Origin: Escherichia phage AV108
Sequence record: OR352938.1
Reading direction: 5' to 3' (one strand)
Length of the DNA: 64,000 nt
Position 1 is the first letter of the stretch. Every line of letters starts with the position of its first letter. A model generated the notes under the pieces. The model made no database searches, was not told where the DNA came from, and was given only the letters and a program-made list of their open reading frames with translations. A program made the translations under genes and the position numbers. Shown piece by piece: positions 21,374 to 63,755 of this stretch.

Positions 21374-22675
21374 CTAAGGGGTATACAGGAACACGCGGTC
21401 TACGCTGATTCCTTGTGACTTATGAATAGTGCAAGCTGGTAATGCTTTTACATTCAAGAACATACGCTTCATCGTCCAGAAAGAATCCCAATCCGGTTTA
21501 AAATTCGGATTCTCTTTCTTCATTTCGCGATATTGTCCGGCGACCGTATTCAGATAGATAGAGAAAATGTTCTTCTGACGTTGTTCTGTCAGAATGTTGA
21601 TTTCTACTAAATCTGGTTTATCTGTAGTGATTCCGACTGCATCTAAACCGACTTTCTGATTTAGGATTTCTTTGTCTTCGTCATCATCGACGCTTTCCAC
21701 TTTCAGAGTATAGCCTAAAACTGGTTGCGGATCTACCCCCGTGCAACGTAATGTAAATTCGCGCGGTATAACCTCTTTAACTCGGATCATCTCACCATTG
21801 TTAAAAATAACATTGGGGATCTTCTTCCCGCGTTCATCTCGCAGATATTCGATCAATGGTTCCTGAGTAACCAGAATTTCATCTACAATCACTGGTTCAT
21901 CGGTGTTATAAACGCGCTTACGTACAATTTCATTGAGTTTTTCGACGCTCTTGTTAGTGTAGGCCAGAATACGGTTTTCTAGAAGGTCTTCCGGCGTTTT
22001 AACGGTTTCGAAATAATGCTTCATAAACTCCGGCAGAGTTGAGCTATGGAATACACCCTCGTTACCGCACTGCTTTTCGAATACCCATTTACCATTACGG
22101 ACAGCGGTCGCCACATCAATTATTGGCGCATTAGATCGTTTAATCTCTGTAAGTTCTACATTCTGAAACCTTTCATCGGTGAAGAAAGGAGAGATCGACG
22201 TTGCGCCGCTCGGATCAACTGGTCGTAACTGGTACAGATCACCCACGGCAATAATAACAATTCGACCGTTGATACTCTTCATGAGAATATCAAATAGTTT
22301 CTTATCGACCATACTCGCTTCATCAACAATGATGATCTGAACATCATCTAGCTTAGGAGTATCTTTTTGCTCAAATACTTGAGTATCTTCATAGTTGGTC
22401 GGGTTTAGTCGCAGTAGTGCATGTAAAGTAAATGCTTGACGACCTACCGCTTTACTCAAAACTTTTTTAGCCTGGTGGGTAGGCGTTGCCAAAACCACAC
22501 CAGTTACACCACGGCGGACCATTTCCTGAACAATGAATTTCATCATTGCGGTTTTACCAGTACCCGCCGCACCACGGACAGTTGTATGCTTCTTTTGTTC
22601 AATGCGTTTCATTAGAACATCAAAAGCATGTTTTTGCCCGTCTGTTAACATATCGAAAGTTAATACTCTGCTCAT
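21374..22675 (-). CDS. dda: Dda DNA helicase (SF1)
   Basis: 433 aa; Walker A GAAGTGKT, Walker B IIVDEASM; T4 Dda size and position. Confidence 0.85.
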   Translation of the reverse strand: MSRVLTFDMLTDGQKHAFDVLMKRIEQKKHTTVRGAAGTGKTAMMKFIVQEMVRRGVTGVVLATPTHQAKKVLSKAVGRQAFTLHALLRLNPTNYEDTQVFEQKDTPKLDDVQIIIVDEASMVDKKLFDILMKSINGRIVIIAVGDLYQLRPVDPSGATSISPFFTDERFQNVELTEIKRSNAPIIDVATAVRNGKWVFEKQCGNEGVFHSSTLPEFMKHYFETVKTPEDLLENRILAYTNKSVEKLNEIVRKRVYNTDEPVIVDEILVTQEPLIEYLRDERGKKIPNVIFNNGEMIRVKEVIPREFTLRCTGVDPQPVLGYTLKVESVDDDEDKEILNQKVGLDAVGITTDKPDLVEINILTEQRQKNIFSIYLNTVAGQYREMKKENPNFKPDWDSFWTMKRMFLNVKALPACTIHKSQGISVDRVFLYTP

Positions 22676-28144: not shown

Positions 28145-29557
28145 TTAGAAAGTCATGTTATTTGCTAGCTCGTCGAGTTTTTCTCGTTTCTCGGCTTGCT
28201 GTGCGCTTTGTGGTTTAACTTGTGCATTCTCCTGATCTGCGATCTGGTTTGGTACTTCATACCAACGCTGATTGCCTTTCTTCACACCAACGTTAAACCG
28301 TGAATAATAGTTCTTGTCACCGTAACGAGACTTGATCTGCTTCATGAGTTGGACGCCCATTTTAGCCAGGTCTTCGGTTTCGATAACACCCAACATAAAG
28401 TCGGCAGTAGCCGGAAGACCTGCTGATTCAGCGGTATCACTCATGTTAAGGTCGGAAGCATCCCAACCCGCGCGGGTAGTCTGTGCCGCAGTCCAACCAA
28501 CAACATCCCACTTAACAAAAAATCCTCGCAGTTCTTCCGCAATCGCCTTAACTAGTGTGTAACTATTTTCAGAGTATACACGCAAGCGAGACGATGCGCA
28601 AATCCCCAGATAGTCAACAATCACAACATCAGGTTTAAACTGTTTCTTGAGTCGCAATTCATTCATTAACGCCTCAAAGTGATTGGAGTTCGCGCCACCA
28701 GTCGGATACTGCTTGATCATCAATTTTCCAACCGGACGATCTCCGATCTTCTTATTCTTAACACGCTTCATGCGTGCGGAATATTCCGCAAAAGAAACAT
28801 TACCATTATCCAATTCATCTAATGTAATGTCAAGCAAGTTTGCGTCGATACGTTTTGCTACTACATGCTCCGCCATCTCCATTGAGATATACAATACATC
28901 ATAACCACATTCCATATAATCCGCAGCAAGAGAACACAAGCCAAGCGATTTACCAACGTTTACACCAGCAAGCAACACATTTAGCGTTTTTCTTTCCGCC
29001 CCTCCTTTCGTGATTTTATTCAACATCGGCAGCTTAAACGGGATCTTATTCGCCTTAGTCTGATATAGCAAGAATCGTTTTTCAAAGTCATTAAACCAGT
29101 CATGACCTACATCAGAATCAAACGTAATGGATAGTGCTTCCTGCATGATCTCAGGAATAGCACCCTCACTCGGCAATTTCTTATTCTGTTTCTCTTTTGG
29201 TAGTTGTGCGTTCGCCTGAATCTCTAGCGCCCGTGACATTGCATTATACATAGCGCGGTCACGAATAAATTTTTCGGTTTCCTTCATTAACCAATCAAGG
29301 TCTTCCGGTGTATTCTCCAGCGAATCGAGAAGAGTTTTCGCCCCTTCATATGTTGTCTGATTTCCTCTCTCCTTGTCTAAAGCAATCTGTAATGCAGTTG
29401 GCGTAGGAATATTGGAATATTCGTCTACGTGCTTTTTAATCAGCTTATAAATCAGTTTTTCTTCGTCTTCGGTGAAGTAGTCCGCTTTAAGGTGAGGCCA
29501 TACATTCGTAAAGAATGCGCCATTGTAAATCAACTGTGAAAAGATAGTTTTAATCAT
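28145..29557 (-). CDS. 41: replicative DNA helicase (DnaB-like)
   Basis: 470 aa; Walker A GVNVGKS; RecA-like fold features; T4 gp41 size and position. Confidence 0.9.
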   Translation of the reverse strand: MIKTIFSQLIYNGAFFTNVWPHLKADYFTEDEEKLIYKLIKKHVDEYSNIPTPTALQIALDKERGNQTTYEGAKTLLDSLENTPEDLDWLMKETEKFIRDRAMYNAMSRALEIQANAQLPKEKQNKKLPSEGAIPEIMQEALSITFDSDVGHDWFNDFEKRFLLYQTKANKIPFKLPMLNKITKGGAERKTLNVLLAGVNVGKSLGLCSLAADYMECGYDVLYISMEMAEHVVAKRIDANLLDITLDELDNGNVSFAEYSARMKRVKNKKIGDRPVGKLMIKQYPTGGANSNHFEALMNELRLKKQFKPDVVIVDYLGICASSRLRVYSENSYTLVKAIAEELRGFFVKWDVVGWTAAQTTRAGWDASDLNMSDTAESAGLPATADFMLGVIETEDLAKMGVQLMKQIKSRYGDKNYYSRFNVGVKKGNQRWYEVPNQIADQENAQVKPQSAQQAEKREKLDELANNMTF

Positions 29558-37508: not shown

Positions 37509-37739
37509 TCACGTTCTAAAGTTTGTTGCAACCCCAGCATCAGGGTAATCAAGTTTATCAAAGTTGGGGACCAGCATAAACTCATGATGACGACAAGACA
37601 ACATTTTTGTTATGTCTTCATCGCTGTATATGCTGTTTTTCATATCCCCCATACTAACTACATATTCTTCACCGGAATATAGATTGATTAAGGTATACAA
37701 TTCTAACTCCGGCTGCGTTACTCTGTCAAATGTTAACAT
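37509..37739 (-). CDS. hypothetical protein
   Basis: 76-aa ORF. Confidence 0.35.
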   Translation of the reverse strand: MLTFDRVTQPELELYTLINLYSGEEYVVSMGDMKNSIYSDEDITKMLSCRHHEFMLVPNFDKLDYPDAGVATNFRT

Positions 37740-39423
37740 TCATTTCAGTGAATCGCCCACGTTTAACCATCTTGAGATGACGGCTAAAATCATCAGGGTT
37801 ATGGTCACGATGGCTGATAATATACACGTTATCATCTAACTTGTCAATGATGGAATCAAGTGCTTTTACGCCTTGAACGTCCGTAGCCCCATCATAAATT
37901 TCGTCGAGTACCAACAAAGAAATATTAGTACCAGATACTTTACCAGCAACATCACGCCATGTAAAGAGCATCGCAAGGTCAATACGTGCTTTTTCGCCTT
38001 GACTGAATGATGTATACGAAAACGATTCACGCCCCCGTGATTTGATTGTTTCGTTAAACTCTTCATCTAGCGTAAAGATATAATCCGCTTCCATGATATC
38101 TAGATAATACGCAATCCGATCATTGAAATATGGAATATATTTCTTGACGATAGACGCCTTAACACCGGAATCCTTCAACATTTCTGTTACAAATCCACGA
38201 TGATATTTTTCAAGAACTAGCTTTGATTTTTCATTAGTAATCTCTACCAGTTCGTGTTCCAGTTTAGCAAGTTCTTCGGAATTGTCAACCCTTTCTTTTT
38301 GTAATTCCTGAATTGCTTTCTGGATCTGTTTAGCCCGACCTACAGATGCCGTTAAATTCGCTCTCAGTGACTCTATAGCGCGTTTAATTTCCAAGACCTT
38401 AGTTTGTGCTGTCTGGAAAGAATTGGCTTTCTCTGCGTATTCTACGCGTTTCTCGTCAATCAGAGACAGTTTATGTTCTGCTTGTGCTTTTTGTTCGCGT
38501 ACAGCTTGATCATTACCCTGAATGATCGGTTGTGTGCACGTAGGACAGATCCCGCCTTTCTCGTGCATATGGATAACACGATCAAAGTTCTGGATCTGTG
38601 CACCAATCTGTGCGATAGCCGTATTAATTTTAGCCAATGTCGCGCTAGGATCTTCCGGCATAACAGCAGCCAATAGCTCATCGGTCAAGCGCGTTTCTTC
38701 GGCTTTAAACGCTTTAGCTGATTCTACTTCTTTCTCGTACATATTCTGCAAACGCTGTAGATTCTCGGCACTCGCCTTGCTAGCGTCTTCTATGTACTTT
38801 TTATGAGTGTTGATTTGTTGCTGAACGTGATTAGCTTTCATTTCCTGCATTTGGATATTCTGGGTAATCTCGCGCACATACGCTTTATTCAGTTTATCCA
38901 TTTCGCCTAGCGTAGCAATATCAAGCAAATCCTCGACCAGTTTACGGCGACCCGCTGCCGGAAGACTCATAAACGGAACATAACCAGCAGTGCCTAAAAC
39001 AACGATCTGTTTAAAGCTGGCTAGGTTCATGCCTATGATACCTTCAAAATATTCCTGAAAGTCTTTGGTGCTTGCGCTCTCGTCGATCTTTTGACCGTCG
39101 CGATGCACTTCGAATACTTCCGGTTTTTGACCACGTTTGATATAAAACTCTTTCCCGTCCAGTTCAAACCAGACTTCGACTAACAGTTTCTTTTTGTTGA
39201 CGCTGTTAATCAATTGGCCTTTCTTGATACTACGAAACGGTTTACCGAACAACACAAAGCAAAGCGCCTCAATCATGGTCGATTTACCAGCACCGTTAAC
39301 ACCAGTGATTAGTGTCTTTTTGAATCCGTCTAGCTGAATCTCTACAGGTTCAGCACCCACGCTCATTATATTTTGATAGCGCAAGGTTTTAAAATTTAAC
39401 TTTGCCATTAATCCACTCCGCAA
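37726..39423 (-). CDS. 46: recombination endonuclease subunit (SbcC/Rad50-like)
   Basis: 565 aa; Walker A GVNGAGKST; central coiled coil with CPTC zinc hook; ABC signature region. Confidence 0.9.
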   Translation of the reverse strand: MRSGLMAKLNFKTLRYQNIMSVGAEPVEIQLDGFKKTLITGVNGAGKSTMIEALCFVLFGKPFRSIKKGQLINSVNKKKLLVEVWFELDGKEFYIKRGQKPEVFEVHRDGQKIDESASTKDFQEYFEGIIGMNLASFKQIVVLGTAGYVPFMSLPAAGRRKLVEDLLDIATLGEMDKLNKAYVREITQNIQMQEMKANHVQQQINTHKKYIEDASKASAENLQRLQNMYEKEVESAKAFKAEETRLTDELLAAVMPEDPSATLAKINTAIAQIGAQIQNFDRVIHMHEKGGICPTCTQPIIQGNDQAVREQKAQAEHKLSLIDEKRVEYAEKANSFQTAQTKVLEIKRAIESLRANLTASVGRAKQIQKAIQELQKERVDNSEELAKLEHELVEITNEKSKLVLEKYHRGFVTEMLKDSGVKASIVKKYIPYFNDRIAYYLDIMEADYIFTLDEEFNETIKSRGRESFSYTSFSQGEKARIDLAMLFTWRDVAGKVSGTNISLLVLDEIYDGATDVQGVKALDSIIDKLDDNVYIISHRDHNPDDFSRHLKMVKRGRFTEMNVNI

Positions 39424-40814: not shown

Positions 40815-41840
40815 CTAACTTTTTGCGCTATTTACTTCGGCTAAAAGTTCATCAGAAATACGCTTGACCGCCGCAAGTTCTTCCGGTTCTAGGTTTTGTT
40901 CTTCCAGATATTCATAGACCATCTGAATAGTGCTTTTAACTTCAATAACACCTGTTTCCTGTGATGCGCTACTCTCCAGCTTATGGACCACTTTTAGCTT
41001 GTGCACAACGGCCTCTAACGCGCTTTCTAACTTAGTTAACCCATTATCAGCAACCGTTGCGATAAGACGCACACTAAGCCCCTTAAAGCGTTCTACATCG
41101 ATCTTATCATCTGACGGGTAAGTGATACGCACATGATAAGTTTTGTCATTCTGGATAAACTCTTTTTTGTGTGTATCGGTATCGAATACCCAAAACCCAC
41201 GCGGATCGTTTTCGTCACCCGCCGTTAGTGTGTATGGTGTACCAATATACGTTACGTTACCGCCATCGCTGATAGTATGAAAATGACCAGAAAACACTTC
41301 ACGGTATTTCTTGAGAAAGTCCGCGCTATAACCTTCGGATTTTAGCCCTTTATAGAAATAGTAACCGGACAATTCCCAATGGCCTACACAATATTCGCTG
41401 AATGAGTTTTGAATAAACTCTAAAATCTCTGATTTATTGTCATCGCAAAACCACGGAAACAGATCAAATGATACACCATCAAAGGTAACTGTTTCCGGCT
41501 TATCAATAACTTTAATACAATCATATTGGCTTAACACTTCACGCGGTGCGTTAGGCTGGATCTTGTTTCGTTTAAACATATCATGGTTCCCGACCGTGAT
41601 ATAACAAGTAATACCAGCCTCTTCCAGTAGCGGGATGACCTTAGTACGGTTAAATTTCATGGTTTCATGGGTAATTGCTTTTCGGCAATCAAACCAATCC
41701 CCTGTTTGAATCCATGTCTTAATATTATGCTCTTTGGAGTATTCAACCGCCTTCTTGATGGTATCAAGAATATACTCATGCACCCACGGATCATCGCCAC
41801 CGATACCAGTATGCAGATCACCTAAAAGCAAAATTTTCAT
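40815..41840 (-). CDS. 47: recombination endonuclease subunit (SbcD/Mre11-like)
   Basis: Phosphoesterase motifs GDLH, GDWFD, GNHD, GHFH. Confidence 0.9.
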   Translation of the reverse strand: MKILLLGDLHTGIGGDDPWVHEYILDTIKKAVEYSKEHNIKTWIQTGDWFDCRKAITHETMKFNRTKVIPLLEEAGITCYITVGNHDMFKRNKIQPNAPREVLSQYDCIKVIDKPETVTFDGVSFDLFPWFCDDNKSEILEFIQNSFSEYCVGHWELSGYYFYKGLKSEGYSADFLKKYREVFSGHFHTISDGGNVTYIGTPYTLTAGDENDPRGFWVFDTDTHKKEFIQNDKTYHVRITYPSDDKIDVERFKGLSVRLIATVADNGLTKLESALEAVVHKLKVVHKLESSASQETGVIEVKSTIQMVYEYLEEQNLEPEELAAVKRISDELLAEVNSAKS

Positions 41841-41892
41841 AGTCTCTTCCTCTCTTCGTTTTCGATGCTCTCACTATATCACAGAAAAATAA

Positions 41893-41908
41893 AAAGGGAA
41901 ACCCCTTT
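41893..41908 (-). terminator. weak hairpin with T-run
   Basis: aaaggg-aaac-cccttt followed by T-run on the leftward strand. Confidence 0.25.
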
Positions 41909-41930
41909 CAGAGTCTCCCTTATAAAGCCA

Positions 41931-42218
41931 TTACAGCATACTTAATACCGTTTGCCGTGTACTAATCCACATAGCAGAAAGCAGTTCTGGCGTGTGTGGC
42001 TGTTTGTAGATATCACGTAATTTTCCGATAGCGTAGATATACGCATCACGATTATCATCGATGATAGCTTGTTCAGCCCACCGCTTAAGTCGTGCAATCT
42101 CTCGCGAGTTCTTACGCAAGATCTTTTCCGCTTTCTTAGCGGCTTTAGCCTCTAGTTCTGCTTGTACTTTGTCTACTTCATTCACTGCAATCTTGTCATG
42201 CTGTTCATCGTAAGTCAT
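41931..42218 (-). CDS. hypothetical protein
   Basis: 95-aa ORF, basic helical. Confidence 0.4.
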   Translation of the reverse strand: MTYDEQHDKIAVNEVDKVQAELEAKAAKKAEKILRKNSREIARLKRWAEQAIIDDNRDAYIYAIGKLRDIYKQPHTPELLSAMWISTRQTVLSML

Positions 42219-42219
42219 G

Positions 42220-42453
42220 TTATTTTACCTCTGGGATATAATCAATTATTAAAGAAAATTCATCTTCTGATACATTATAGCTATGTGAGATTGTACCCGT
42301 CAAGACCTCAAGATCCGGTGATTTGATATTGCACGGATCGATAATCACCGGAACGCCGCAATCTCTCAAAAATAATTTGGCGAAATACGGCACGAGGTCA
42401 GTTTCAAACTCTGCTTCTTCCAGCAAACGGGAAATGTTAATTTTCAATCTCAT
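42220..42453 (-). CDS. hypothetical protein
   Basis: 77-aa ORF. Confidence 0.4.
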
Positions 42454-42970
42454 AAAATTGGTCCAGGCTAGGCAATTCCTCGGTCAATACATCTTCAACC
42501 TTTGGCGCTTTCGGTTTATTGACCGATTCCTCGTAGTTGTTGATTTTATCGTAAATGTCCTGTATGAATGCCTCATCAGCAATCTGGCACATATCAGCGT
42601 CGCGTTCGTCATATACATGATGCACAAAATATTTGTATTTTGCGGCTGTCGCTGTTCTCTCTTTTTTAATGCGCTGTACAAAAGCATTAAAGCACGCTTG
42701 CGTGATGTAAGCATGAGGATTTTTATACTTTGTCTCGTCAAAATTAATCAAACCCTTGACCGCCGCTTCGATTCCGTCGTCGATCATTTCTTCGCGCCAT
42801 GTTTGACTATAACCAGAAAAGTTAAAACGACGTGATAGATTTTTAGAGATTTGCATAATTGCTAGGCCGATTTGATCGCTCATTGGAACTTGCCGACCTT
42901 CTGCTGCAATTTGTTGTTTCCAACGGCAAATTTCTTCGTAAAGCTCTTTATTGTTTACATAATCAGACAC
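42437..42970 (-). CDS. 55: late sigma factor
   Basis: Strong match to T4 gp55 ([56 protein letters not shown]). Confidence 0.9.
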
Positions 42971-43010
42971 TTCGCACCCTCGCTATTATTTAGGAAATAA
43001 CCCGTTCGGG

Positions 43011-44480
43011 CTATTCCCCATTACCATTATACTTTCTTTGCTTAGTTATCCACACTCTAACCATCTCTACAGATTCGCCGTCAGACGGATCAAGAGTTTT
43101 TCCTTTTTTCTTCATGCGGTACTTAAATCCGTTAAATCTTGCATTCTCTTGCTCGTTAAAGTCGAACATCTTTTTAAATGATTTTCGCCCTTTACGCTCA
43201 CCGCATTCTAGCGGAATCATTCGGTCTGTTATTACATTGGCATTAGGCAGAAACGTTTTTAGATAATCAACCAACGCCCAATCAGGAACATATAGATTAA
43301 CATTCTCCTTGCTCTCGTTGTCTCTCAGGTTACAACGCAAACATAATTGAAATGCTGGTTCCAGATAATCAGACACATGACGCGCTTTCAAAAACTCGTT
43401 TGTCGGGAGATCGCAACTATTAGCAAGACCTTTTAAAATATCAATCTCCCATCGTTGAGGGTTAAAGCTGAACATCACAGCAACATTTTTATGATGAATG
43501 TAAGAGTTAAGACCATAAGATCCGTAAGGTATCCGCTCACCAATACCATTTGTGCACGCTTCACGGTCCCGATTCACGGTATAAATGAAGTCATCACCAC
43601 ATTCATTTTTAACCATATCAACAAGACGTTCAAAGGTATTGTTTGTTTCTGACTGGTGACGCGACCATCGTTCGGAGTCCGTCATAAGGATGATATTAAC
43701 TCTATCTGTATTTTTATACTCTTTGAAATATAGTCTGGATTCTAGCGCACTAGGAACAAAATCGCAATTTGCATAGTATCGTAGATACTTCCCACTATAT
43801 GTATCAAAGAGATTTGCACATGCTATCGTAACCTTTTTAAAGTCTCCCCACGTACCGTGTTTGTTATCGTTCAAGAAAACAATTTTCGACCCATTCTTCC
43901 GGTGTCCTTCGTTATGTTTTACCATAACGTTGATTTTCTTCTCTAATAACGCCTCATAAAGCCCTCTAAGAGAAGAATCGATCATATCAGTACCATCCTT
44001 TGCACTTTCTATCTTTTCTTTGATAGCGGCCTTCTCAGAGTCTTTTAGAACTAAGTTCTGTAGGCATTCCGATTCGTCGGCGATTGGTTCGCAATGCTTC
44101 GTGATAAGTTCAAGATTAGACTTAAACGGATACTCATTAAATTCAACCAGTTGAGGAACTTCATCAATGTAAAGAGCATATTCACCAAACATTTTTGAAC
44201 GTTCCATATTAGATAACGCTGTATGTGTAATGAATATCACATCAGCACCATCTTTAACTGATTGCATTATAGACGCTTGCACTGTCTTAAGGCTTCTTAG
44301 TCTTGTGCTATCAATCAAGACAGCACGACCGCCCATTCTTTTAAACTTATTGTAAGATTGTTCACTTAAAACACGAGATGGCGAAGCAATAACCGCTTTT
44401 TCTTTTGTCTCTAGGACGTGGGAAAGTATAGCATCAGTTTTCCCCGCCGCTGGCAATGCGATTAATGTTTCAATCTTCAT
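43011..44480 (-). CDS. P-loop NTPase of unknown function
   Basis: 489 aa; Walker A ALPAAGKT at residues 8-15, Walker B-like ALYIDEV near residue 105; no further assignment possible by eye. Confidence 0.55.
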   Translation of the reverse strand: MKIETLIALPAAGKTDAILSHVLETKEKAVIASPSRVLSEQSYNKFKRMGGRAVLIDSTRLRSLKTVQASIMQSVKDGADVIFITHTALSNMERSKMFGEYALYIDEVPQLVEFNEYPFKSNLELITKHCEPIADESECLQNLVLKDSEKAAIKEKIESAKDGTDMIDSSLRGLYEALLEKKINVMVKHNEGHRKNGSKIVFLNDNKHGTWGDFKKVTIACANLFDTYSGKYLRYYANCDFVPSALESRLYFKEYKNTDRVNIILMTDSERWSRHQSETNNTFERLVDMVKNECGDDFIYTVNRDREACTNGIGERIPYGSYGLNSYIHHKNVAVMFSFNPQRWEIDILKGLANSCDLPTNEFLKARHVSDYLEPAFQLCLRCNLRDNESKENVNLYVPDWALVDYLKTFLPNANVITDRMIPLECGERKGRKSFKKMFDFNEQENARFNGFKYRMKKKGKTLDPSDGESVEMVRVWITKQRKYNGNGE

Positions 44481-44785
44481 TAGAAACCCTTACGTCGTGC
44501 TTTCTGGCATTTCTTGATCATTTTATCAGAAATTTCGCGCTTAGGTGCAATCTCTTTCACACCGAAAGCACTAATGCCAAATTCAGAGAGAATATATTCA
44601 ACCAACAATTCACGCACACGCGCTTTACCGATATTCACGCCGTTATTTTTCAGATATGTCTGACCTTCGACTTGCATCAGATCTAAGTCTGCGTCGGTAA
44701 TATTGATTTCTTCCATGCGCCCAAATCGAGAATAAACCATGTGTGCGATTGCATTGTGTACTAACATAATATATTCCTCACTCAA
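44480..44785 (-). CDS. hypothetical protein, translationally coupled to the NTPase
   Basis: 101-aa ORF whose stop overlaps the NTPase ATG (ATGA). Confidence 0.45.
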   Translation of the reverse strand: MSEEYIMLVHNAIAHMVYSRFGRMEEINITDADLDLMQVEGQTYLKNNGVNIGKARVRELLVEYILSEFGISAFGVKEIAPKREISDKMIKKCQKARRKGF

Positions 44786-44788
44786 GAA

Positions 44789-44947
44789 TTACTTAATGAT
44801 ACTTACTTTACCAGATCCGTGACAATGAGCGCAACACCCATCACCACGCAATCCTGTTCCGTTACAGTGTTTACACTTCTTCAAAGGTAAAGCCATTATA
44901 GCAAATAAAGCAATAATGAATACCGAAACTAAATTCTCAATAATCAT
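44789..44947 (-). CDS. small membrane-anchored protein with DnaJ-type zinc finger (not in ORF track)
   Basis: 52 aa: N-terminal TM helix then CKHCNGTG...CAHCHGSG (two CxxCxGxG repeats). Confidence 0.35.
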   Translation of the reverse strand: MIIENLVSVFIIALFAIMALPLKKCKHCNGTGLRGDGCCAHCHGSGKVSIIK

Positions 44948-45206
44948 AAATCGCCCTCAGTTCTTTATAGCCTCCAATGTGCTCGTTGTCAATGAATATC
45001 TGGGGGTATACAAACCGGAGGCTCTTTGAGTTCAGCCTCCCCGCCAGTTCTTCAATCATATCACGGTCGGGAATAATGTCAACCCCGACCTGCTTGAATA
45101 CTGGTTTAAGTGTATACGGAATACCCAGATCATCCAGTAGCTTCATTGCACTAATACAACCATAACAATGATAAGCCTCTTTCGGTATGCCGTATATCTC
45201 GATCAT
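44937..45206 (-). CDS. glutaredoxin-like protein (NrdH/NrdC family)
   Basis: CYGC active site; YPQIFIDNEHIGGY glutaredoxin signature. Confidence 0.7.
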   Translation of the reverse strand: MIEIYGIPKEAYHCYGCISAMKLLDDLGIPYTLKPVFKQVGVDIIPDRDMIEELAGRLNSKSLRFVYPQIFIDNEHIGGYKELRAIYDY

Positions 45207-45703
45207 TTCTCAGCCTTTAATCTTTCTAGTTCTTCTTCCAGTTCCTTGATCCGTTGGTCACGTTCAAAGTCACGCTGCAACTTAGTGGCAAATACTCGTT
45301 TAAACTGTTTGTAATCATCGATTTTAAACACTTCTTCTTCGCCATAGCGACGCACAGAAACTTCGTAGTTATTGAAGAATTGTTGCATCATTGCTTCGGA
45401 TGATAGTTCTGCTGATACCACTTTAAAATATTGATCTTCGGTCGGTGAAAACCAATTACAAGCATAAAGATAAACCTTTTCATTGTCTGGACACTGGTAA
45501 GCCTTACCATCGATTTCAATCACAGAAACATATTCAGGTATAGTCGATGAATCAATAGCTAAGACTTTAAACTGACGGTCCCCGATAAACTCGGAGATCA
45601 CACGATTCGCATCACTGGTTGCAAAGGCTTTACGCGCTTGTTCGCTTTTCCACTGATAGGTCATACCAACAACAAACATATTACCAACCTCGCTCTTTAC
45701 CAA
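45203..45703 (-). CDS. paralogous-family protein A
   Basis: Shares TYxWK...PFxV...IEIDG...WF...FFxEV core and charged C-terminal helix with family members. Confidence 0.5.
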   Translation of the reverse strand: MVKSEVGNMFVVGMTYQWKSEQARKAFATSDANRVISEFIGDRQFKVLAIDSSTIPEYVSVIEIDGKAYQCPDNEKVYLYACNWFSPTEDQYFKVVSAELSSEAMMQQFFNNYEVSVRRYGEEEVFKIDDYKQFKRVFATKLQRDFERDQRIKELEEELERLKAEK

Positions 45704-46214
45704 TCAAAAATTCAACTTCACGACGTTTAATATCTTCTTGAAGGTCTTTAATCTTCTGTCGATCTTGCATGATTTCATCCATCTTGTCAAGTGCTGCAAT
45801 GAAATCATCGAAACGTTCAAAGGTTTTACCTTCATTTGCTTCGCTAAATTTAACCATAGTCAGACCGTAACGACTACTAAACAGACGTTTCAACTGTCCA
45901 ACGATCTTAGAATCAGTGGTTATAACTTCCAATTCTTCTACTTCTTGAAAGAATTTTCTATCAGAATCAATAAACCAGCTAGTTCCTTTATGGTTGCTAT
46001 CTTCGGTTGCACTCATTAGAGTATGGTCTTTACCATCAATTTCAATTACATCAATTTGCCCACATGGACTAACCTTTTTAACAGTAAAAGGTCTATAATT
46101 TATTGCTCGTGCAATAACATAATTAAGGTTAGATACGTTTTCAGCATAATGGCAGAAGTCGGTCATAGCATTCGCATCTTTCCAGGTGTAAGTTTTACCA
46201 ATTTCCCATTTCAT
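45681..46214 (-). CDS. paralogous-family protein B
   Basis: MKWEIGKTYTWK...PFTVKKVSPCGQIDVIEIDGKDH; tandem family member. Confidence 0.5.
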   Translation of the reverse strand: MKWEIGKTYTWKDANAMTDFCHYAENVSNLNYVIARAINYRPFTVKKVSPCGQIDVIEIDGKDHTLMSATEDSNHKGTSWFIDSDRKFFQEVEELEVITTDSKIVGQLKRLFSSRYGLTMVKFSEANEGKTFERFDDFIAALDKMDEIMQDRQKIKDLQEDIKRREVEFLIGKERGW

Positions 46215-46226
46215 AATATATTCCCC

Positions 46227-46706
46227 TTAACCGATTTTATCAAGTTCGTTTAATGCTTTCTCTGCTTCCTGTATAGCTTGCACCCTTTCCGGCATTTTGT
46301 CAAGAAAATCTTTCAACTCTTCAAAACTGGAGATATGACGCAAGGCGTTAGCACCGATAGCCGCATGTGATTTGCATTCAAAGCGGATTTTATAATTATC
46401 CATCGCCAACTTGAGAAGATCAATTAATTTAGATTCTTCTGGAATAATAATTTCTTCAAATCTGCTACGGTCATGATCCAGAAACCAACAAGATAGACCT
46501 ACATCGGTTGAACTCATATAAGTTCCATCATGAAGATAAACAGACCGCACGTATCCTTTTTTCGCATCAACCGACGCAACTTTAAACGGTAATCGCAGAT
46601 ATTTCAAATAATCAACATCATACCATTTAAAAAATTGGTTTGCATCTTTTACATCTTTCCACGCATAGGTCTTACCAGCTTCCCATTTCATAATATCATC
46701 TCTCAT
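46227..46706 (-). CDS. paralogous-family protein C
   Basis: MKWEAGKTYAWK...PFKVASVD; tandem family member. Confidence 0.5.
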   Translation of the reverse strand: MRDDIMKWEAGKTYAWKDVKDANQFFKWYDVDYLKYLRLPFKVASVDAKKGYVRSVYLHDGTYMSSTDVGLSCWFLDHDRSRFEEIIIPEESKLIDLLKLAMDNYKIRFECKSHAAIGANALRHISSFEELKDFLDKMPERVQAIQEAEKALNELDKIG

Positions 46707-47232
46707 TTTTGATACGTGATTCTAATTGGATCATACGGTCGCGCGTTTGTTTGTATTCTCGGATAGCACCGATCCGGCTAGGCATACCATCCAGTACGCT
46801 CTTAATACCTTCTAGGGTAGTAATTTTGGCAATGCTATTATGTAACCCCATCTTATCGATCAACTGAATGTCGTAGGCTTCCATAAGCAGACCCAAGCGT
46901 TCTAAAGTTAGGTCTTCTTCTTTTTCTTCCGAATCTGGAATCTTAGGTTCAATAGTAACTTCGGTAAAGAAACGACGCTCACCCGACCAAAACCACACGC
47001 CGGAACAACCAATAGGGGATTCTTTTAACGTCATAGAGTCGAAATTACTACCAATAATAGTAATTTCTCTAACATCACCATCATCGTCAAGGTCTTCTAC
47101 CCTAAACGGGCGACCAGCCAACAGGTCAACAATACATCTGTTAATAGACGACGAAAATTTAGTCAGTTCGGCTTTCGACGCTTCACATTCAATCTTGTAA
47201 GTTTTACCAACTTCCCATTCCATAATAATCAC
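46696..47232 (-). CDS. paralogous-family protein D
   Basis: MEWEVGKTYKIE...PFRVEDLDDDGDVREITIIG; tandem family member. Confidence 0.5.
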   Translation of the reverse strand: MIIMEWEVGKTYKIECEASKAELTKFSSSINRCIVDLLAGRPFRVEDLDDDGDVREITIIGSNFDSMTLKESPIGCSGVWFWSGERRFFTEVTIEPKIPDSEEKEEDLTLERLGLLMEAYDIQLIDKMGLHNSIAKITTLEGIKSVLDGMPSRIGAIREYKQTRDRMIQLESRIKNER

Positions 47233-47233
47233 C

Positions 47234-47743
47234 TCAAATAATTTTCACTGGAATACTATTAACAATCTTGTATTGTACTTGATTGTCAGACCCCCGCCAC
47301 GGCTTCTTCGTTGGCATATCTTTAATATAACGCCCATCGATGAACATGTCAACTGATTCTACAATTTTTCTTTGCTCATCATTCAATTGGTCAAGGGTAT
47401 AACCAGACCATAGCCAAATATCTTTATTTGGCATCCATGATTTTACTTCATCGATGATCCGCTGTACACCCTTTAAATTGCGTTTATACAGTGGATCACC
47501 ACCTAAGAATGTTAGCCCCTGAATAAAATCAGGTCTAAGCAGATCCAGAATCAATCCCATTGTATCATCGGTGAATGGTTCCCCGTTCTTAGGATTGAGT
47601 ATACTGGAATTAAAGCAACCATCACATGCGTGTGAACATCCGGTAACGTAAAGGGAGACTCTCACTCCCTCACCGTTAACCATATCACAATCTTTAATAT
47701 CGGCATAGCGTAGTTTGCCGTATGTATCAGAACTCATATTCAA
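47234..47743 (-). CDS. nrdG: anaerobic ribonucleotide reductase activating protein (radical SAM)
   Basis: CxxxCxxC-type cluster GCSHACDGC near the N-terminus; size and position as T4 NrdG. Confidence 0.9.
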   Translation of the reverse strand: MNMSSDTYGKLRYADIKDCDMVNGEGVRVSLYVTGCSHACDGCFNSSILNPKNGEPFTDDTMGLILDLLRPDFIQGLTFLGGDPLYKRNLKGVQRIIDEVKSWMPNKDIWLWSGYTLDQLNDEQRKIVESVDMFIDGRYIKDMPTKKPWRGSDNQVQYKIVNSIPVKII

Positions 47744-49068: not shown

Positions 49069-49096
49069 ATTATACATTAGCTAATCATGTTGTCAA
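49069..49096 (-). promoter_or_regulatory. sigma70-type early promoter
   Basis: TTGACA-N16-TATAAT immediately downstream of the nrdD terminator. Confidence 0.55.
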
Positions 49097-49102
49097 CACC
49101 CC

Positions 49103-49139
49103 AAAACGAAAAAGCCGACCCTTTCGGATCGGCTAAAAA
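49103..49139 (-). terminator. intrinsic terminator after nrdD
   Basis: agccgacc-cttt-cggatcggct hairpin flanked by A/T runs. Confidence 0.6.
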
Positions 49140-63158: not shown

Positions 63159-63755
63159 TTATTTGGTAGTACCATCAATAAAATGTTTACGACACACAGA
63201 AACATATTTATCCTCTGCACCAACTTCTATTTGAGCACCATCGCGAATAACATTACCATCTTTATCTACGCGAAGGACCATAGTCGCTTTCTTGCCACAA
63301 TGACAAATACCCTTCATTTCGACCAGTTTATCAGCAAATGCCATTAATGCCGCAGATCCTTCAAATAGATTGCCCTGAAAGTCAGTGCGAAGGCCATAGC
63401 ACAGTACAGGGATATTAGCATCATCAACAAGCGCACACAAGCCTAAAACATGCTCTTTAGTCATAAATTGGGCTTCATCTACAAATACAGCATCAGGACG
63501 CCAGCGATCCGTTCTACGCTTACCTAGTGATTCACGATAAACCAAGTCGAAAAGATCATCCGATTTAGTGAAGGTGATCGCTGGAGCACTTAGACCAATT
63601 CGGGAAACGACTTCACTTTCTGAATCTCGATTATCAATCGCTGGTTTAAGAATTAATACTCGCATATCACGTTCGGTATAGTTATAAGCACTTTGTAACA
63701 GAGAAGTTGATTTGCCAGCGTTCATAGATGCATAGTAGAAATATAATTGCGCCAT
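63159..63755 (-). CDS. tk: thymidine kinase
   Basis: Walker A MNAGKST; LILKPAIDNRDS; VFVDEAQF; YGLRTDF; CHCGKKA zinc motif; matches T4 and E. coli Tdk. Confidence 0.9.
   Translation of the reverse strand: MAQLYFYYASMNAGKSTSLLQSAYNYTERDMRVLILKPAIDNRDSESEVVSRIGLSAPAITFTKSDDLFDLVYRESLGKRRTDRWRPDAVFVDEAQFMTKEHVLGLCALVDDANIPVLCYGLRTDFQGNLFEGSAALMAFADKLVEMKGICHCGKKATMVLRVDKDGNVIRDGAQIEVGAEDKYVSVCRKHFIDGTTK

Follow-up and report, generated by a model that had tools for sequence, protein, structure and literature searches.

In a 64,000-nucleotide (nt) stretch of the genome of Escherichia phage AV108 (OR352938.1; hereafter the window), three leftward genes stand between nrdH and gene 55, and the question they raise is whether they constitute one system or a set of separate accessory genes. 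The initial annotation regarded them as a three-gene operon built around an unusual P-loop NTPase of 489 amino acids (aa). We found that the 489-aa product is predicted to be a superfamily 2 (SF2) helicase of the YonV family, that the middle gene is a homologue of T4 gene 55.2, and that the third gene encodes a small peptide with a predicted membrane anchor. We put the probability at about 0.65 that the locus is an accessory part of the early leftward stretch between the nrd genes and gene 55, in which the helicase would serve replication or recombination and no three-gene system exists. The window is a segment of a Krischvirus (RB49-like) genome, and nucleotide comparison of its positions 42400–45800 gave 99.0% identity to phages kaaroe and Whisky and 98.9% to RB49.

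Conserved helicase motifs of the 489-aa protein

The 489-aa protein is a member of phrog_2467 (E 8.8e-175), a PHROG without an assigned function, and its residues 11–130 matched Pfam DEAD at 27.4 bits against a gathering score of 26. No NCBIfam match was obtained, and neither the sequence alone nor the profile of its 26 T4-like homologues (alignment A1) gave anything useful in the PDB. The Walker A motif that the initial annotation placed at the N-terminus is present as ALPAAGKT, and the ALYIDEV segment expected about 95 residues later (residues 101–107) follows after 93. Across the A1 alignment the motifs PAAGKT, SxSRxLSxQS, FITHxAL, LYIDEVP, TIAxAN, FIYTxNxxR, HGLNxY, FQLCxRxxxR and VPD were recognized (Table 1 gives the positions of the main ones in the window protein).

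An exhaustive profile search (E up to 1e-3) collected 1,330 cluster representatives (50% identity clusters). In an alignment of 77 cluster representatives that are 17–43% identical to the window protein (A4), the residues K14, D106, E107, G323, N325, Q378, R382 and R386 are invariant, and six of these (K14, D106, E107, Q378, R382 and R386) are also invariant in 55 long relatives. A functional SF2 ATPase would show just such residue conservation, and the protein is predicted to be catalytically intact. When the A4 profile was compared with the PDB, it reached the first RecA domain (RecA1) of SF2 helicases, with Mss116 (7e-7) and PriA (1e-6) followed by reverse gyrase, Mfd, UvrB, XPB and NS3; the second half (RecA2) had no sequence match to any solved structure. 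Pfam DEAD was matched by 52 and ResIII by 29 of the 77 relatives.

Fold of the protein and its place in the YonV family

The initial annotation proposed a structure-based search, and an AlphaFold2 model was built with the 26-sequence alignment (mean predicted local distance difference test 87.8, predicted template modelling score 0.76). The model consists of RecA1, interrupted by the insertion 112–215 between motifs II and III, RecA2 (about 240–420) and two C-terminal helices. Foldseek returned CasDinG of CRISPR type IV, XPD and DinG at E 2e-9 to 1e-7, and these matches aligned 60–90 residues more than other SF2 matches. In BFVD the top matches were uncharacterised phage proteins of the same family, including those of Atu_ph07, phiRSL1 and Fusobacterium and Pseudoalteromonas phages, and next came a protein named "DinG Rad3-related DNA helicase". 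According to the model, the nearest solved folds are therefore those of the XPD/DinG (Rad3-type) DNA helicases, SF2 enzymes of 5'-3' polarity. The 489-aa protein is predicted to be a helicase or translocase of SF2 that stands alone, has diverged far and shows motifs I, Ia, Ib, II, III, IV, V and VI.

The kinship with XPD and DinG is distant, as sequence identity is only 9–16% and the window protein has 489 aa against 550–740 aa. Pfam DEAD_2 and Helicase_C_2 were not matched by it at E up to 1, and both were outside the 25 most frequent families in the 77 relatives. Unlike XPD, it has no 4Fe-4S domain: there is no cysteine in residues 1–129, the only cysteines kept throughout the T4-like clade are C130 and C380, and neither a single cysteine nor a set of four is conserved across the wider family, so an XPD-type Fe-S cluster is absent. 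Some DinG proteins, such as CasDinG and S. aureus DinG, are likewise not known to have the Fe-S cluster. The 112–215 insertion, at about the place in the chain where XPD has its Arch domain, may be a counterpart of that domain.

Profile comparison with hhalign linked the A4 alignment to YonV of SPbeta with 98.0% probability (E 2.4e-13, 371 columns spanning the helicase core, all motifs in register), and the alignment of longer relatives described below (A6) gave 92.7%. We therefore assign the 489-aa protein, on the strength of these profiles, to the YonV or "pVOG1685-pVOG9714" helicase family of phages, plasmids and integrated elements, which was predicted by Kazlauskas et al. (2018, J Mol Biol 430:737; PMC5862659). 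In that report the helicase domain follows an N-terminal All3500-type archaeo-eukaryotic primase (AEP), the SPbeta branch pVOG9714 is most similar to herpesvirus UL9, and pVOG1685 is described only as "some T4-like phages"; neither RB49 nor NP_891615 was found as text in its supplements. A literature search found no functional study of YonV, of the Krischvirus helicase or of a Straboviridae DinG. The 489-aa protein has no detectable similarity to any other window ORF of at least 150 aa.

Both UL9 (OBP; cryo-electron microscopy structure in PMC12543377) and the window protein are viral SF2 helicases with a C-terminal appendage, which in UL9 is an origin-binding domain, and an obvious helix-turn-helix (HTH) closes many of the bacterial proteins related to the window protein. 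A likeness to UL9 was not recovered for this clade by sequence or fold: OBP was not among the listed fold-search matches, and Herpes_ori_bp was matched by 1 of the 77 relatives. The appendage of the window protein is basic, with 17 K/R and 9 D/E in the last 63 residues. We also considered it as a degenerate HTH and found no support for this, since profile–profile comparison matched the shared VPDxxxAxYL segment (29 columns) but left the tails unaligned.

Domain fusions and genomic contexts of the relatives

Among the relatives of at least 700 aa, 62 of 63 carry one homologous C-terminal extension with the motifs LDxDxG, NSxS..RxR..IP and SxFYLPC. From the relatives of about 800 aa (P0063–P0188), 55 long members were aligned (A6). 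The extension matched the PHROG "DNA primase" 9765 in 23 of these 55 (best 5e-12), with further matches to 2135, 17236 and 3228, and it also matched primases of N4-like phages. In most of the fused relatives found here the helicase comes first and the primase-like part is C-terminal, which is the reverse of the order reported in PMC5862659. The obvious HTH is found at the end of many relatives of about 500 aa.

In two unrelated bacterial contigs (L042, 5867–9641; L047, 6001–9200), a member of 500–546 aa adjoins a tyrosine recombinase with DUF6538 and Phage_integrase domains, and in L042 a resolvase is also nearby; this layout suggests a small integrative element built around the helicase. Other relatives are located in phage contigs. 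In three phage-like contigs (L043–L045) the gene of about 800 aa follows oppositely oriented genes after a gap of 180–360 nt, and tblastn against plasmids gave only five weak, unannotated matches. Taken together, the primase-like fusions, the HTH ends and the integrase neighbours point to DNA and mobile-element replication as the sphere of action of the family.

The three genes are real, and the middle one encodes a gp55.2 homologue

Each of the three ORFs is a genuine gene that is conserved and evolves under purifying selection. The trio is kept in the same order in contigs L041, L039 and L038, in which the helicase homologues are 69%, 63% and 49% identical, and the ratio of nonsynonymous to synonymous substitution rates (dN/dS, Nei-Gojobori, with L041 as reference) was 0.30 for the 52-aa peptide, 0.07 for 55.2 and 0.11 for the 489-aa gene. 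A Shine-Dalgarno sequence is present ahead of each gene. The initial annotation had allowed that the two small ORFs might not be translated, which conservation, the two low ratios and the Shine-Dalgarno sequences all oppose.

The middle ORF had been read as 101 aa. It is present and conserved, but the true gene is one of 95 aa, starting at the ATG at 44767 with the Shine-Dalgarno sequence GAGGA 8 nt upstream; this start matches the annotation of RB49, and divergent relatives all begin with MLVxN. The product scored 99.2 bits with Pfam DUF7570 (cut-off 27) and was 41.7% identical to T4 gp55.2 over 96 aa by blastp (E 1.6e-18), and T4 gene 55.2 has the syntenic position between gene 55 and nrdH. 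From this similarity we take the middle gene to be the orthologue of T4 gene 55.2. The T4 protein is longer at its C-terminus (108 aa), and on the gene 55 side its gene neighbours the unrelated 55.1 (87 aa), where the window has the helicase gene. T4 gp55.2 is a DNA-binding product of an early transcript that blocks relaxation by E. coli topoisomerase I; it is non-essential and raises phage fitness (Mattenberger, Silva and Belin 2015, PMC4396842). Inhibition of topoisomerase I and DNA binding were shown for T4 gp55.2, to which the RB49-type protein is likened by sequence.

The ATGA overlap of 4 nt described at 44480 proved to be TAATG, in which the stop codon of 55.2 and the start codon of the helicase gene overlap by 1 nt. 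Such an overlap is ordinary for this region, because in the RB49 locus 6 of the 17 junctions between same-strand genes overlap.

The 52-aa peptide is lineage-restricted

The 52-aa peptide, described in the initial annotation as membrane-anchored with two CxxCxGxG repeats, has a hydrophobic N-terminus and both repeats. The 19-residue Kyte-Doolittle mean reaches 2.49 at residues 2–20, the repeats are CKHCNGTG at residue 25 and CAHCHGSG at residue 39, and the transmembrane segment and cysteine pattern are retained in relatives at 77%, 35% and 29% identity. Like the Cys-rich domain of DnaJ the peptide has CxxCxGxG repeats, and it matches DnaJ models weakly (Pfam DnaJ_CXXCXGXG, 14.6 bits against a gathering cut-off of 32.7, E 0.041). 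DnaJ is a soluble chaperone with four repeats and two zinc sites, whereas the peptide has two repeats, enough for one predicted site, and a transmembrane anchor.

Among the 29 helicase-bearing loci, phmmer found the peptide in Krischvirus loci only. By tblastn, homologues with 42–44% identity over 88% of the length were present in Felixounavirus phages of E. coli and Salmonella, where they are frequently annotated "membrane protein", so that this is a small gene common to unrelated coliphage groups, in which it occurs independently; tblastn with the helicase found no homologue in Felixounaviruses. The 52-aa product is thus, as its sequence is read, a lineage-restricted membrane-anchored peptide with a single predicted zinc site, and it is not a partner of the helicase, because it is restricted to Krischvirus among the helicase loci and yet occurs in Felixounaviruses in which no helicase was detected.

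Inheritance of the helicase gene

Among 29 IMG/VR loci, several genera show the same order, nrdG-nrdH-55.2-helicase-55-a-gt.5, with RB43, Proteus Pm5461, Aeromonas PX29, Aeromonas phage 31 and Erwinia Cronus as examples. In 28 of the 29, the helicase gene is preceded by a 55.2 homologue, which abuts or overlaps it in about 20, from at least four genera; in Cronus and the Serratia phages the two are about 1 kb apart. A total of 1092 phage records have a 55.2 homologue and 243 have the 489-aa protein, and no T4-type phage is among the listed or tallied records with the latter. In T4 itself 55.2 is present without the helicase gene, and the interval between gene 55 and nrdH holds only the small genes 55.1–55.6, as the initial annotation said. 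On the best-supported reading, the gene encodes a YonV-family auxiliary helicase or translocase for DNA that has a fold like that of XPD/DinG and is produced early; many T4-like genera have passed the gene on vertically, directly before gene 55, and T-even phages lack it.

Between the window and L041 the synonymous divergence (dS) was 0.39 for the peptide gene, 0.41 for 55.2 and 2.18 for the helicase gene, and the aa identity was 96% for 55.2 and 68% for the helicase. The jump in dS at the 44480 junction (L041 5001) indicates a recombination breakpoint at the 55.2/helicase boundary, so the helicase allele moves independently of 55.2, with exchange of helicase alleles between lineages.

In Biquartavirus genomes (Aeromonas phage 31, L004 3441–4004; L018–L020 and L036), a gene labelled DprA-like is interposed between 55.2 and the helicase gene. 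This gene for a "DprA-like DNA recombination-mediator protein" of 187–191 aa overlaps the helicase start at the usual place of 55.2. We did not rely on this neighbour as a clue to recombination, as the Pfam support for its label is E 0.18.

A recent insertion or mobile cassette was rejected in view of the cross-genus synteny, the flat GC of the locus (0.37–0.41, with no compositional anomaly found) and searches of the locus that found no flanking repeats and no Rfam element.

Transcription of the locus

The trio is not isolated by any promoter and terminator pair that we could find. The closest candidate promoter upstream lies inside nrdH and consists of TTGACA, a 16-nt spacer and TATGAT with an extended -10 TG. 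From it the 52-aa gene, 55.2, the helicase gene and gene 55 could be transcribed without the promoters further upstream. The two strong intrinsic terminators in Table 1 are the only ones on the minus strand here, none was found between the helicase gene and gene 55, and no late-promoter box was found near the trio. From the promoter positions and the lack of closer strong terminators, the trio belongs to a long early unit that runs leftward through gene 55 and on into a-gt.5 and a-gt.4. The overlap of nrdH with the 52-aa ORF means that tight packing extends beyond the trio. The three minus-strand ORFs of the proposed operon exist where they had been placed, but a discrete three-gene operon with its own promoter, its own terminator and co-inheritance was not found.

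Proposed role and alternative explanations

A DNA substrate, 5'-3' polarity and a role in replication or recombination are our best inference from the predicted fold and the domain fusions. ATP would be bound between the two RecA domains by K14, D106/E107 and R382/R386, and its hydrolysis would drive translocation along single-stranded DNA. Early in infection, this movement may serve to unwind or remodel R-loops, D-loops or branched DNA, through which the helicase activity would support phage replication or recombination. We dropped the idea that in phages without MotA the helicase substitutes for MotA-dependent firing of R-loop origins, as Aeromonas phage avDM1 (OP380606.1) has both MotA and the helicase.

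It is unlikely that the helicase is instead a counter-defence or host-takeover factor, for instance by stripping away or decoying defence or repair proteins of the host. PADLOC gave nothing significant for the 489-aa protein, its sole match being E 0.0088 to an unrelated DRT model, and homology to a defence system was dropped; the gene keeps its place over several genera by vertical inheritance and shows no hotspot-like turnover, relatives carry fused primase-like domains, and the GC is flat with no flanking repeats. Just as unlikely is a functional pair of helicase and gp55.2, analogous to the helicase and type IA topoisomerase partnerships of reverse gyrase and RecQ-Topo III. The neighbourhood of the two genes in nearly all loci and their translational closeness in all Krischvirus-like relatives speak for such a pair, as do the DNA binding and topoisomerase I modulation of gp55.2 (PMC4396842) and the appearance of the reverse gyrase helicase domain among the PDB profile matches; the distribution of the two genes and the independent exchange of alleles argue against it. 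In an equally doubtful version, gp55.2 would block host topoisomerase I, negative supercoils and R- or D-loops would persist on the phage DNA, and the helicase would load there to start or restart replication. If true, many non-T-even T4-like phages would have an initiation pathway of a helicase and a topoisomerase modulator, a pathway that T4 itself has lost or replaced.

It is very unlikely that the protein is an RNA helicase that works on the mRNA or transcription of the phage. A DEAD-box-like RecA1 and the position beside the late sigma factor gene would fit it, and the top sequence-level matches are DEAD-box proteins (Pfam DEAD; Mss116, DDX52); nevertheless, the protein has no Q-motif and no DEAD-box consensus for motif III or VI, its structural neighbours as a whole protein are the DNA helicases XPD and DinG, and its relatives have primase-like or HTH domains and integrase neighbours. 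We give even less credence to one three-gene machine, implicit in the initial annotation, in which the zinc-finger peptide would tether a 55.2-helicase complex to the membrane. Tight packing, a Shine-Dalgarno sequence for each gene and retention of the trio in Krischvirus-like relatives down to 49% helicase identity are what it would predict, but nrdH is packed onto the peptide gene just as tightly, no promoter and terminator pair sets the trio apart, and the distribution largely refutes it, with the peptide missing from every other helicase-bearing genus and its homologues standing in Felixounaviruses where tblastn found no helicase. We therefore favour the reading of the 489-aa protein as a replication or recombination helicase in an accessory stretch.

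Features and neighbours of the locus

In RB49 the trio is annotated as RB49p044 (hypothetical), RB49p045 (gp55.2, 95 aa) and RB49p046 (hypothetical), flanked by gene 55 and nrdH, and the related record of phage W115 has the labels "putative helicase" and "putative membrane protein" at these genes.

Table 1. Positions of genes, helicase motifs and transcription signals in the window
Feature	Position	Strand	Basis or remark
489-aa ORF, RB49p044 homologue	43011..44480	minus	ORF list
Middle ORF, 101 codons from TTG	44480-44785	minus	ORF list
gp55.2 homologue, 95 aa (DUF7570), from ATG	44480..44767	minus	Pfam, blastp, RB49 annotation
52-aa ORF, predicted N-terminal transmembrane helix and two CxxCxGxG repeats (one predicted zinc site)	44789..44947	minus	phrog_3931, conservation
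nrdH, glutaredoxin	44937..45206	minus	Stop overlaps 52-aa ORF by 11 nt
Gene 55, late sigma factor	42437..42970	minus	40 nt downstream of helicase gene
Motif I / Walker A, ALPAAGKT, residues 8-15	44436..44459	minus	
Motif Ia-like, ASPSRVLSEQS, residues 32-42	44355..44387	minus	Aligns with PTRxLxxQ of DEAD-box Mss116 (PDB profile alignment)
Motif II / Walker B, LYIDEVP, residues 103-109	44154..44174	minus	
RecA1 insertion of about 100 residues, sequence-variable, residues 112-215	43836..44147	minus	Model secondary structure and alignment A1
Motif III-like, KVTIACAN, residues 216-223	43812..43835	minus	
Motif V-like, YGSYGLNSY	43500..43526	minus	G323 and N325 invariant
Motif VI, FQLCLRCNLR	43323..43352	minus	Q378, R382 and R386 invariant; presumed arginine fingers
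Basic two-helix C-terminal tail, residues 432-489	43014..43187	minus	
Sigma-70-like promoter, 12/12 matches	49069..49096	minus	Directly after strong terminator; probable start of leftward early unit
Sigma-70-like promoter, 11/12 matches	47324..47352	minus	
Sigma-70-like promoter, 11/12 matches, inside nrdH	45055..45082	minus	Closest candidate promoter upstream of trio
Strong intrinsic terminator, upstream	49113-49134	minus	
First strong intrinsic terminator downstream, 12-bp stem and T run	41894..41921	minus	Past a-gt.4

Immediately upstream of nrdH, four tandem paralogous ORFs of 159–178 aa occupy 45203–47232 on the minus strand; they have in common a W-E-x-G-K-T-Y-x-W-K domain at the N-terminus and a coiled-coil-like region at the C-terminus (alignment A9). 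One of them (45203–45703) was scanned and matched phrog_5347 and, weakly, "goF mRNA metabolism modulator" PHROGs. The array differs between close relatives, and the arrangement in RB49 is different and includes the 274-aa RB49p049. Between gene 47 and a-gt.4, RB49 has a gene for an HNH (AP2-domain) homing endonuclease (L001 1887–2441), which the window is without; here the interval 41840–41931 has the downstream strong terminator as its sole content.

Walker A motifs are also present in four other window ORFs, 21374–22675, 28145–29557, 37726–39423 and 63159–63755 (minus strand), as GAAGTGKT at residue 35, AGVNVGKS at 197, GVNGAGKS at 41 and ASMNAGKS at 9. Their positions and motifs suggest Dda, gp41, gp46 and thymidine kinase, respectively, and none of the four has similarity to the 489-aa protein.

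Significance

The locus is largely explained by mostly ordinary parts, namely the known accessory gene 55.2, a helicase of a previously predicted family and a lineage-restricted zinc peptide, and it reveals no new kind of system. The assignment corrects the label "hypothetical protein" that the gene product bears in dozens of phage genomes of the RB49, RB43, Aeromonas, Proteus, Serratia and Cronobacter types. It also brings out a large family of mobile-element helicases (about 1,330 clusters), some of which are fused to primase-like domains. Phages of these types would have a fourth, XPD/DinG-like helicase that is missing from the T4 model, which marks a difference in the DNA-metabolism toolkit between the T-even phages and their relatives.

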